Shown piece after piece: positions 2,919 through 64,000 of a DNA stretch of 64,000 nucleotides (position 1 is its first letter; each line of letters opens with the position of its first letter). The DNA is taken from the NCBI GenBank assembly GCA_027489095.1, contig JAIYAL010000042.1, positions 8,153 to 72,152 on the forward strand, given 5' to 3'. The translations under genes and the position numbers were made by a program. Below the pieces are notes generated by a model that worked only from the letters and a program-made list of their open reading frames with translations, was not told where the DNA came from and made no database searches. This stretch comes from Erythrobacteraceae bacterium. Its GTDB lineage: Bacteria > Pseudomonadota > Alphaproteobacteria > Sphingomonadales > Sphingomonadaceae.

Positions 2919-3136
2919 AAGATGCCGCCGCCCAGCGTCAGCCTTACGCCCGCGATCAGCAGCACGATCAGGCAGAAGTTGCGCCCCCCGTCCTTCGACG
3001 ACAGCGCGCCGAGGATGATGCCGACGACAATCAGCGGCAGAGCGATCCAGTTGGCCCAGCCGAGCAGCGGGATCTGCGCCGGGATGACGATGACGAGGCT
3101 GATGAGGCCGACGAGATAGGCAAGGGCGTTGAGCAT
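2915..3136 (-). CDS. Small hydrophobic membrane protein (73 aa)
   Basis: MLNALAYLVGLISLVIVIPAQIPLLGWANW...; about 3 hydrophobic segments, convergent on mutY. Confidence 0.7.
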   Translation of the reverse strand: MLNALAYLVGLISLVIVIPAQIPLLGWANWIALPLIVVGIILGALSSKDGGRNFCLIVLLIAGVRLTLGGGIF

Positions 3137-11322: not shown

Positions 11323-11414
11323 TGCGCGATTGACCCCGTCACCGGCGGGCCTACAGCGTTGTCACTCATGGCATCCTGCGCGCGCCCACAGACCTTCGCC
11401 GATTGCGGCTTACC

Positions 11415-12401
11415 GTGCGCCTGACCCTGCGCCCGCTCGTTCTGCTGCTCGGCCTCGCGCTTTCGGGCTGCGTCACCTTCCCCGATATCTCGCAATCGCG
11501 CTCGCCCTGCCAGCTTGAGCCGGGCGGATGGTGCGGCTTCCTGCGCGAGGCGGCGGTCGATGCCTTCCCCTATGCGCTGGCCTCGACCAATGCCTACACG
11601 GGCGACGAGGATCTGTTCGCAAAGCCGGGCCGCGTGTTGCAGCGCGTGGCCCATCTCCCCATTGCCGAGGCCGATGCCGACAAGGGCTTCGACTACCAGA
11701 TCTTCAACCAGTACGAGAGCGGCAAGGGCGCCGCTGCCGACCGCAAGCCCGTGGCGCGCATTCTCGCCTTTCGCGGCACGGACATGAAGAGCCTCGCCGA
11801 TATCTTCTACGGCACGCTGCGCGGTGATCAGATCGAATTGGCGCTGCGCTATTTCGAGGCGGAAAAGGCGCGGCTGGGGACGGATGTGCCGTGGATTGTC
11901 ACCGGCCATTCGCTGGGCGGCGCGCTGGCGACCGAGGTGTCGGTGGCTCATCCCGATGTGCGGGCCTATATGTTCAACACCTCGCCCTTCTACCGCAGCG
12001 AAGTGCGCGACAATGCGCTGCGGCGCACCGTCTTCAACGAGCGGGGCGAGCTTCTGCGCCGTTTCGCGCGGTTTGATGAGCCGCCCGCGGCGAATGTCTT
12101 CACGATCAATTGTGAACCGCGCAAAGGTGCCATCACCAAGCACAAGGTGCGCCCGCTGGCGGACTGCATCACCTGGATCGCCGCCTATGCGAGCGAAGAT
12201 GCGCTCCAGATCGTGAAGGCGAACGGCATACCTAAGCCTTTCGTCGAATGCGGGCCCGAAGACATGGTCCATCCCGGCCCCGGTTATCGCCCGACCGCGC
12301 CCTGCATCCAGAATGGCCTGCGCCGCGAAGCGAAGCCAAAAGGCAAGGACGACCAGAAGGGCAAGAGCAAGGACAGGGACGCGGACAGGAACGGGGGCTG
12401 A
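11415..12401 (+). CDS. Alpha/beta-hydrolase (class 3 lipase-like) lipoprotein
   Basis: Lipobox LALSGC, LAFRGT and nucleophile elbow GHSLGG. Start could be TTG 11403 or GTG 11415. Confidence 0.75.
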   Translation: MRLTLRPLVLLLGLALSGCVTFPDISQSRSPCQLEPGGWCGFLREAAVDAFPYALASTNAYTGDEDLFAKPGRVLQRVAHLPIAEADADKGFDYQIFNQYESGKGAAADRKPVARILAFRGTDMKSLADIFYGTLRGDQIELALRYFEAEKARLGTDVPWIVTGHSLGGALATEVSVAHPDVRAYMFNTSPFYRSEVRDNALRRTVFNERGELLRRFARFDEPPAANVFTINCEPRKGAITKHKVRPLADCITWIAAYASEDALQIVKANGIPKPFVECGPEDMVHPGPGYRPTAPCIQNGLRREAKPKGKDDQKGKSKDRDADRNGG

Positions 12402-12416
12402 CAGCGGGCTGCGTGT

Positions 12417-12504
12417 TTGACCCCGGCTCAGATCGCGCAGACCCCCACCTTGACCCCCTCTAGACCCCCCTTAGACCCCCTTTAGGGTCACTTCAGACCC
12501 TGCC
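12417..12504 (+). repeat. 11-bp-periodic GACCCC direct-repeat array, copy 1 (G-quadruplex motif on minus strand)
   Basis: Units TTGACCCCCTC/TAGACCCCCCT/TAGACCCCCTT/TAGGGTCACTT/CAGACCCTGCC at 12450-12504, plus looser units near 12417 and 12438. Confidence 0.9.
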
Positions 12505-12512
12505 AGATCCGA

Positions 12513-12528
12513 TGTTTCATGTGAAACA
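12513..12528. other. parS: parS-type centromere palindrome
   Basis: TGTTTCATGTGAAACA, one mismatch to the widespread chromosomal consensus TGTTTCACGTGAAACA; intergenic. Confidence 0.8.
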
Positions 12529-12584
12529 CTGGCATTCCGCAGCGATTGAACCGGGCTGCCATCGGCGCTACAGGCGCAGCCCTC

Positions 12585-63352: not shown

Positions 63353-63392
63353 ACAGACGAGGCCCGCGCGGCTGGTTGGCGGTCGCTGCGGG

Positions 63393-63458
63393 TTGTCCCC
63401 GCTTTGACCCCCTCCAGACCCCCCTTAGACCCCTGTTAGGCCCTCCCTAGACCCTCTC
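63393..63458 (+). repeat. 11-bp-periodic GACCCC direct-repeat array, copy 2 (G-quadruplex motif on minus strand)
   Basis: Six units at an exact 11-bp period: TTGTCCCCGCT/TTGACCCCCTC/CAGACCCCCCT/TAGACCCCTGT/TAGGCCCTCCC/TAGACCCTCTC. Confidence 0.92.
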
Positions 63459-63476
63459 TGGCGCGGCAAATTGCGA

Positions 63477-63492
63477 TGTTTCCCGTGAAACA
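63477..63492. other. parS: parS-type centromere palindrome
   Basis: TGTTTCCCGTGAAACA, one mismatch to TGTTTCACGTGAAACA; abuts the stop codon at 63493. Confidence 0.8.
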
Positions 63493-64000
63493 TTACGCCG
63501 CCGCCGGGATCGCCGGAACCGTGATCGTCCGTTCCCCGCCGAACTCCTCGCGCACCACGATCCGCCCCAACCGTTCCAGGTGGTCGAGCAACCGCCGCAC
63601 CCGGCTGGGGGAAGCGCTGCCGTAGAGGCGGCCCAGCTCCTCCTCGCCGGGCATGGGGCGGCCCATGTGAGCGGCGATGAGGATCGCGAGATAGGGGGCG
63701 AGCAGGTCCTCCTCGATGCCATCGGCGGCGGCGGCGATGGCGCTGCAAGAAGCCTCATCGATGCAGTCCAAACCACTGATGGAAAAGGCGAAAAGCCGCC
63801 GGAACCGGGCGAGGTCAACATGGGCGGAAGGGATGCCGCGCTGGCGGCAGAGCACCGCAAAGTCGCGGAACAGCGCGGCGGCGGGGCGGAAGGTGGCCCC
63901 CTCTGCCAGCCCAAGTTCACGCACCACGCCCTCAAGGTCGCCTGATGCGCCGGACGCAGCCGGAACGGGCGGCGCGGGCGGGGCGGGCGGGGCGGGAGGA
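63493..64000 (-). CDS. C-terminal part of a larger protein, probably a DUF87/HerA-like ATP-binding protein with winged-helix tail (5' end outside the window)
   Basis: Frame open to the window edge; Pro-rich linker, then YGSASPSRVRRLLDHLERLGRIVVR. The family assignment is from recall of this tail only. Confidence 0.55.
   Translation of the reverse strand, partial: PPAPPAPPAPPVPAASGASGDLEGVVRELGLAEGATFRPAAALFRDFAVLCRQRGIPSAHVDLARFRRLFAFSISGLDCIDEASCSAIAAAADGIEEDLLAPYLAILIAAHMGRPMPGEEELGRLYGSASPSRVRRLLDHLERLGRIVVREEFGGERTITVPAIPAAA

Follow-up and report, generated by a model that had tools for sequence, protein, structure and literature searches.

A parS-like palindrome coupled to a one-sided, helically phased 11-bp array: a candidate directional centromere element of the Erythrobacter/Porphyrobacter lineage

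In chromosomes of the Erythrobacter/Porphyrobacter lineage, we find parS-like palindromes joined on one side to a tandem array of 11-bp units that keeps a constant helical register with the palindrome. The window (the whole stretch of 64,000 nucleotides that we analysed) includes two of these composite elements, and the family to which they belong comprises at least 118 elements at 59 or more distinct chromosomal positions in about 20 Erythrobacter/Porphyrobacter genomes. Judged by its sequence and distribution, the element appears to be a directional form of the bacterial centromere that is particular to this lineage. We consider it probable that array and parS form a coupled cis-element with a function, and are neither a chance pairing nor junk. 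Our preferred reading of what it does, for which we see about even prospects, is a composite ParB-loading site, in which parS is combined with a one-sided array that would serve as a cooperative protein-binding iteron platform and would make the site directional. The original prediction knew of no bipartite chromosomal parS, and we found no description of one with a phased array in the full-text literature either.

The two palindromes are the only parS-like sites in the window at up to three mismatches to the consensus TGTTTCACGTGAAACA, where 0.05 are expected and none of 100 shuffles reaches two; the site at 63477 is indeed the only companion of the first, as the original prediction had it. 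The coordinates of both elements and of their neighbours are collected in Table 1. The pattern GACCCC-N5-GACCCC (at most one mismatch) has five matches in the window for 0.6 expected, and AGAC-N7-AGAC-N7-AGAC has four for 0.13 expected. All of these matches fall within the two parS loci, and neither pattern scan finds an array of 11-bp units anywhere else in the window. The five units first described in copy 1, at 12450-12504, are the best five of eight that share one register, the seventh of which is inverted or deviant. The gap between array and parS in copy 1 had been given as 11 nt; counted from the end of the last unit it is 8-9 nt, the earlier boundary having evidently been placed slightly differently. 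The two copies lie on the same strand and align from the array through the last base of parS, where the similarity ends, and their core units share about 43 of 52 positions by our own count on the alignment. On this alignment the deviant unit occupies the same slot in both (TTAGGGTCACT versus GTTAGGCCCTC), and the spacer of copy 2 has a 10-nt insertion, so that parS follows the last GACCCC at an offset of 39 in copy 1 and of 49 in copy 2, the difference of about one helical turn that had been proposed. Since the arrays are confined to the two parS loci, the copies align and the deviant unit sits in the same slot, the earlier observation of a homologous array in the same orientation before the second parS holds.

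Table 1. The two composite elements of the window and their neighbouring features.
Feature	Positions	Strand	Description
Gene upstream of copy 1	11403-12401	+	Probable lipoprotein; stop codon at 12399-12401
Copy 1 array	12416-12503	+	Eight 11-bp units in a single register, core AGACCCC; in order TTTGACCCCGG, CTCAGATCGCG, CAGACCCCCAC, CTTGACCCCCT, CTAGACCCCCC, TTAGACCCCCT, TTAGGGTCACT, TCAGACCCTGC
Copy 1 terminal partial unit/spacer	12504-12512	+	CAGATCCGA; 9 nt, abuts parS
Copy 1 parS-like palindrome	12513-12528	.	TGTTTCATGTGAAACA; 15/16 to consensus
Promoter-like TTGAAC-N17-GCTANA upstream of miaB	12543-12575		
Copy 2 array	63391-63456	+	Six 11-bp units; in order GGTTGTCCCCG, CTTTGACCCCC, TCCAGACCCCC, CTTAGACCCCT, GTTAGGCCCTC, CCTAGACCCTC
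Copy 2 spacer	63457-63476	+	20 nt, 10 nt longer than that of copy 1; unit pattern lost
Copy 2 parS-like palindrome	63477-63492	.	TGTTTCCCGTGAAACA; 15/16 to consensus
ORF downstream of copy 2	63493-63927	-	144 aa; stop codon directly adjoins copy 2 parS

Copy 1 lies between the stop codon of a lipoprotein-like ORF and the miaB promoter region. The promoter-like motif upstream of miaB is also present at 2968-3000 in locus L001 and at about 2995-3030 in L002 and L003, and it is kept even in relatives that have no composite; from this conservation we conclude that copy 1 sits between the stop codon of the upstream gene and an intact miaB promoter. The product of the upstream gene has a LALSGC lipobox-like signal, a GHSLGG serine-hydrolase-like motif and a Lys/Asp-rich tail, and no Pfam family matches it. 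Copy 2 lies between a gene for a tRNA-binding domain and the 3' end of a convergent ORF, whose product likewise has no match in Pfam.

Scans that make no reference to parS recover the same association across genomes. An array-only scan of 185,579 species genomes for three GACCCC at 11-bp spacing picks out a distinct subclass with variable YY spacers, for which the matches listed all come from Erythrobacter/Porphyrobacter-type genomes; 12 of the 17 listed arrays of this subclass are followed, 12-55 nt further on, by a parS (at most one mismatch), and the side never changes. In a stricter array-only scan, for AGACCCC three times, we tallied the matches of Erythrobacteraceae type: 49 of the 65 arrays listed have parS 12-60 nt away, again always on the same side, and 16 have none. 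A composite scan, admitting any gap of 6-36 nt between array and parS, returns at least 112 loci, all but one chance match from the Erythrobacter/Porphyrobacter lineage. The suggestion that array and parS form a coupled unit, with the array on one constant side, thus stands: about 75% of parS-blind arrays carry a parS, and the side is the same in every composite. This is not the pattern of a generic REP or MITE, the alternative that the original prediction had asked to be checked through arrays lacking any enrichment of parS. The predicted co-occurrence is incomplete, as about a quarter of the arrays with three perfect units have no parS. Several of these solo arrays resemble composites with a decayed palindrome. 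Because some are conserved at orthologous sites, the array may have a parS-independent role as well. Nor does every parS in the clade have an array: both sites in the window do, and a perfect TGTTTCACGTGAAACA at L213:7690-7705 lies inside a coding sequence, whose minus strand encodes ...VFHVKHY..., with no clear array beside it.

As an example of a solo array, we present the one found at the same position in three genomes (L105, L329 and L332), which ends about 60 nt before an ATG. The gene that follows, with a product starting MTSTNEIRRSFLDYF, we take to be that of alanyl-tRNA synthetase (alaS). The array is followed by TTTTTCGCGCTCCATTGCGAAATCC, which resembles a parS split by a 7-nt insertion. 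The sequence suggests a decayed composite, or else an array kept for another reason.

What was described as a two-copy element is really a dispersed family, with at least 8-14 copies per individual genome on different contigs, several of them large. E. colymbi has at least eight elements on four contigs totalling 2.5 Mb, and in the MAG CAVXXQ one contig of 917 kb has copies at about 216, 712 and 896 kb, a span of 680 kb. The element is confined to the Erythrobacter/Porphyrobacter lineage and is not a feature of Sphingomonadales in general: among 80 miaB loci from Sphingomonadales and other Alphaproteobacteria, parS lies upstream of miaB only in the closest relative, the MAG 'La3' (87% MiaB identity), where five perfect units precede it. 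No empty orthologous site upstream of miaB was found among these 80 loci. The genome sample includes many MAGs, and the sequencing runs that contain the region are of metagenomic DNA only.

The logo of 110 elements gives the unit consensus Y-Y-A-G-A-C-C-C-C-C-T, which we also write YYAGACCCCCY, and arrays have 3-9 units of 11 bp. The A preceding GACCCC is 91% conserved, and it was not imposed by the search pattern. For the third unit back, which was not selected for, the conservation is A66 G77 A69 C79 C86 C88 C81 (percent). In unselected units the C-runs are the most conserved positions, followed closely by AGA, and the C-runs appear at fixed coordinates relative to parS even without alignment of the units. 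Distal units often keep AGAC with the C-run replaced (AGACGCGTT). The last, partial unit, with family consensus CCAGAACGA / CCAAAACGA, abuts parS. Between elements, the similarity extends to the last base of parS and no further in one direction, and in the other it is lost gradually over degenerate units. Inspecting the logo, we rejected a CtrA array (TTAA-N7-TTAA), for which unit positions 1-2 are only 53-65% conserved, position 4 is G and the best match is TTAG; a DnaA-box array (TTATCCACA), which the unit matches at 4-5 of 9 positions, and the alphaproteobacterial LexA (GTTC-N7-GTTC) and MetJ metbox sites, both poor matches, were discarded by inspection as well.

The palindrome is a perfect 16-mer in 62 of 113 elements and has one mismatch in another 48 (consensus TGTTNCACGTGNAACA). 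Its variation is asymmetric: of 76 sites, 11 depart from T1, the base on the array side, and none from A16; A12G is common while the mirror change T5C is rare, although the search pattern introduces some bias into the contrast between positions 5 and 12. At 33 orthologous positions the palindrome is retained while the flanking intergenic DNA diverges. Palindrome and phase are both under visible constraint.

The phase is seen in the offset between the last perfect GACCCC (counted at its G) and parS (counted at its first base), which is quantised at 17, 28 or 39 nt, give or take one. The search pattern admitted all offsets from 12 to 42; we find 31 elements at 16-19 nt, 52 at 26-29 nt, 27 at 38-41 nt and three at other offsets. 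Of 113 elements, 106 have an offset that leaves 5, 6 or 7 modulo 11, and when one element is taken per position this remainder lies within one of 6 for 58 of 59 independent positions. This spacing in 11-bp steps agrees with the claim that the array is held on one face of the DNA relative to parS. Orthologues have offsets that differ by 0-2, 9-12 or 20-22 nt. The spread around each class is about 0.75 nt to either side and is equal for the 17, 28 and 39 classes; being constant over distance, it indicates that one-base slips do not accumulate. A register can by itself be preserved when units are gained or lost through slippage, and the conservation of phase could partly reflect how arrays evolve and not selection. 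Selection on the phase is argued for by the non-accumulating spread together with a register that is held through spacers which are no longer unit-like, as in L126 and L185. Geometry at 10.5 bp per turn would place the AGAC cores within about 1-2.5 bp of the major groove facing the side contacted by ParB.

The array could also act through the shape of the DNA, without any dedicated protein. Phased C-tracts and CTAG steps would then give a curved or unusually stiff (A-like) arm, or a G-quadruplex or i-motif, which would fix the geometry of parS or impede the sliding of the ParB clamp on one side. A calculation with wedge parameters, to be treated with caution, gives one consensus unit a total twist of 362 degrees, by which the 11-bp period would equal the local helical repeat; the same parameters predict a bend of about 35 degrees per 88 bp versus 18-22 degrees for shuffled or flanking DNA. 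Both estimates are suggestive only. The high conservation of the C-runs in unselected units would suit such an arm, but AGA is nearly as conserved, and a distal AGAC that has lost its C-run is not something a pure structure requires. The predicted curvature is modest, and a four-run G4/i-motif pattern (runs of at least three G or C, loops of at most 7 nt) is present in only 61 of the 118 elements. A purely structural arm seems unlikely to us.

Clustering the 118 elements by similarity of their flanks gives 59 positional groups, of which 33 are common to two or more genomes, always with the same orientation relative to the flanks. Window copy 1 has orthologues in the La3 MAG, in E. colymbi JCM 18338 (L200) and in an Erythrobacter MAG (L243); the last has the same inverted unit TTTAGGGTC and the same parS variant, T at position 8, as copy 1. 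Orthologous positions are occupied in all genomes sampled, a sample not drawn specifically for empty sites. Beside elements at different positions there is no recurrent protein family and there are no adaptor or motor genes of parR/parM or parG/parF type; the neighbours are unrelated housekeeping genes. No terminal inverted repeats or target duplications are evident at the element borders, and no transposase lies nearby. Plasmids give no match and viral contigs one. On this sequence evidence the element is best read as vertically inherited and not mobile.

Where both flanking genes can be called, the context is convergent for 26 elements (59%), tandem for 16 (10 of them +/+ and 6 -/-) and divergent for 2. 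The element avoids promoters, and its orientation relative to transcription is not significant (10 versus 6 in tandem contexts). The downstream gene at many convergent loci stops 8-23 nt short of parS, which leaves hardly any intergenic space outside the element. These contexts bear on an RNA-level alternative, in which the 3' UTR of the upstream gene would contain the array as a Rho-utilisation (rut) site, which would halt RNA polymerase before it meets a ParB-parS complex. In most loci the array starts 18-90 nt past the stop codon of a co-directional gene, in keeping with such an insulator, and it offers 55-90 nt of C-rich, G-poor sequence with no intrinsic terminator nearby. The apparent orientation bias with respect to the upstream gene, however, comes from the preference for convergent intergenic regions, and the tandem contexts that would reveal it fall short of significance. 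Rho, moreover, has no need of AGAC or of a palindrome further down the DNA at exact 11-nt register, and the element, like the rest of the window, has no match in Rfam. We find this alternative very doubtful. Neither window element has a sigma-70 promoter or intrinsic terminator consensus. We also discarded the idea that parS and the AAAA of the partial unit form an intrinsic terminator for the convergent gene, as conservation of the spacer positions is too weak for it.

Composites on the same contig point the same way. In all nine contigs with more than one, including the window, they are co-oriented (22 elements, 13 of 13 comparisons, p ~1e-4), at spacings of 24-496 kb. The co-oriented sets are L194/L244/L262, L126/L200/L300, L222/L224/L266, L215/L229/L241, L181/L291, L246/L261, L219/L223, L218/L239 and the two window copies. 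In the window (1-64000) the KOPS-like motif GGGNAGGG occurs 14 times on the plus strand versus 2 on the minus strand, and GGGCGGGG has a ratio of 11:2. The 14:2 skew places the whole window on one replichore, with the plus strand probably leading and the arrays on the origin side of parS. At other loci the orientation of the element agrees with the GGGNAGGG skew in 24 cases and opposes it in 20, which makes a simple origin-to-terminus directional model awkward. Whether an element agrees with the skew or opposes it is specific to its position and conserved among orthologues; by genome, E. colymbi elements all agree, those of CAVXXQ, NE805 and VAR25 mostly oppose, and D8 is mixed. There may be a chromosome-wide polarity rule, one that is not simply origin-to-terminus. 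The GC skew of the flanks, which we tried as a measure of replichore polarity, gives a weak signal (67 versus 50).

The same observations can be set against the view that the element is a selfish repeat, similar to a REP or MITE, that carries parS by chance or hitch-hikes on ParB, has an array with no centromere role and survives only at harmless intergenic spots. Copy numbers of at least 8-14 per genome over many contigs, the preference for convergent over tandem and divergent contexts (26, 16 and 2), solo arrays that resemble decayed composites and the limitation of the array to one lineage are all what such a repeat might produce. Occupancy and orientation, though, are conserved at orthologous positions across genera in the 33 shared groups, the borders lack the inverted repeats and duplications that insertion might leave, no transposase or recurrent neighbour gene accompanies the element, and it is absent from plasmids and essentially absent from viral contigs. 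Constraint on palindrome and phase is visible, and random insertions would not predict co-orientation within contigs. A selfish origin of this kind we regard as improbable. Compared directly, REP/BIME and MITE repeats share with the element the multiple copies, a length of about 100 bp, an internal palindrome and a preference for gene 3' ends; the element differs in having only tens of copies, in the conservation of position and orientation between genera, in a palindrome that is the exact parS consensus, and in showing none of the terminal inverted repeats, target duplications or transposases.

Known parS sites are bare palindromes, usually in origin-proximal clusters near parAB, and parS is regarded as a self-sufficient, symmetric loader of ParB-CTP clamps and, via them, of SMC. 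We infer that ParB binds the palindromes described here from their exact parS consensus, perfect at dozens of positions, taken together with what is established about parS. In our preferred reading, a canonical ParB-nucleation palindrome would be joined to 3-9 phased iterons that stay in register up to parS. The palindrome would be the loading point of ParB. A sequence-specific DNA-binding factor would assemble cooperatively on the array, contacting the AGAC(C) core at each turn on approximately the face used by ParB; this factor might be a small protein of its own, or ParB might make the contact through a second DNA-binding surface. Being one-sided, the array would render a symmetric site polar, with the possible effect that ParB is locked or stabilised at the site, or that the sliding of the ParB-CTP clamp, and so the loading of SMC, is blocked or biased to one side. 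A partner acting at the DNA level to make the site directional is argued for by the one-sided, in-register array with its base-specific core, by the orthologous conservation and by the chromosome-scale co-orientation. A further extension, rather improbable in our view, would give Erythrobacter/Porphyrobacter chromosomes 10-30 dispersed directional ParB-loading sites, each bound at its iterons by a putative factor. Being co-oriented over hundreds of kilobases, they would present ParB clamps and SMC loop extrusion with orientation-dependent barriers, or with loaders that work to one side. If true, this would amount to a bacterial equivalent of oriented CTCF sites and would reveal a new level of chromosome organisation.

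The palindromes could instead serve a ParB paralogue (Noc-like or KorB-like) or some other protein as genome-wide landmarks, with the array as a co-site. Elements are dispersed and not clustered, as landmarks would be: those of E. colymbi occupy at least four large contigs (about 2.5 Mb), and those on one CAVXXQ contig span 680 kb. The window and about 0.9 Mb of fetched loci have no ParB gene with the GERRxRA motif, and no parAB is found near any element. The palindrome, on the other hand, has the exact universal parS consensus, perfect in 62 of 113 cases, and the known paralogues Noc and KorB recognise diverged sites. We judge a paralogue quite improbable.

The closest analogies come from plasmid or origin systems and appear to differ from the element in defining features. 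Canonical chromosomal parS sites for ParB (Spo0J), reportedly the subject of Lin and Grossman (1998) and Livny et al. (2007), are the first comparison. The elements have the same 16-bp palindrome in several copies per chromosome, mostly intergenic; unlike canonical sites they carry a one-sided phased array and are spread over many large contigs, with no parAB seen nearby. Plasmid P1 parS is likewise a composite, asymmetric centromere with a second class of short motif, and helical phasing matters there too. It is an analogy only, as its heptamer (box A) and hexamer (box B) boxes surround an IHF bend site and are all bound by one ParB, and P1 parS is a single plasmid site with no 11-bp tandem array. 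R1 parC, with ten 11-bp iterons for the ribbon-helix-helix protein ParR, and the heptads of omega and ParG resemble the array in having five or more direct repeats of about one turn, which would suit cooperative wrapping by small dimers; these type II and type Ib plasmid centromeres adjoin parMR or parFG and, unlike the element, have no ParB-type palindrome. In RK2, the KorB operator (OB) is a site for a ParB-family CTP clamp, dispersed over the replicon, and a partner site at fixed distance, the KorA operator (OA), holds the clamp; the system is plasmid-borne, however, its partner site is a single palindrome and its role is transcriptional silencing. The low-affinity DnaA-box arrays of E. coli oriC (9-mers plus 2 bp) have a co-oriented 11-bp period and guide a filament from a strong anchor, whereas the unit here matches TTATCCACA poorly and the sites are not at an origin.

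A lineage-wide coupling of parS and array would imply an unrecognised partner of ParB or an unrecognised means of directional clamp loading. It would also provide a natural system for two questions, namely what follows from having many dispersed parS sites and what makes them share one orientation. E. colymbi JCM 18338, Porphyrobacter sp. AAP60 and Porphyrobacter sp. MBR-155 are culturable carriers in which direct tests can be made.

Finally, the scans return some matches with other labels. An assembly labelled Synechococcus sp. UW140 (CALRJK02) has composites of Erythrobacteraceae type at L105, L204, L218, L232, L239, L257, L287 and L301, on contigs of up to 970 kb, and it has positional groups in common with Porphyrobacter loci; this bin is probably mislabelled or contaminated. 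Tandem repeats of GACCCC 11-mers in Acidobacteriota, Actinomycetota and others are perfect repeats without parS, and we discarded them as unrelated. In Vicinamibacterales, Acidobacteriota and Gemmatimonadota, near-perfect tandem arrays of the 11-bp unit CTGACCCCGGT, often paired with an inverted array (GGGGTCAGACC), lie at gene boundaries (L081, L082, L088, L091, L095, L101, L113, L114, L136, L144 and others). They share the period, and their core is similar, but they belong to another repeat family.
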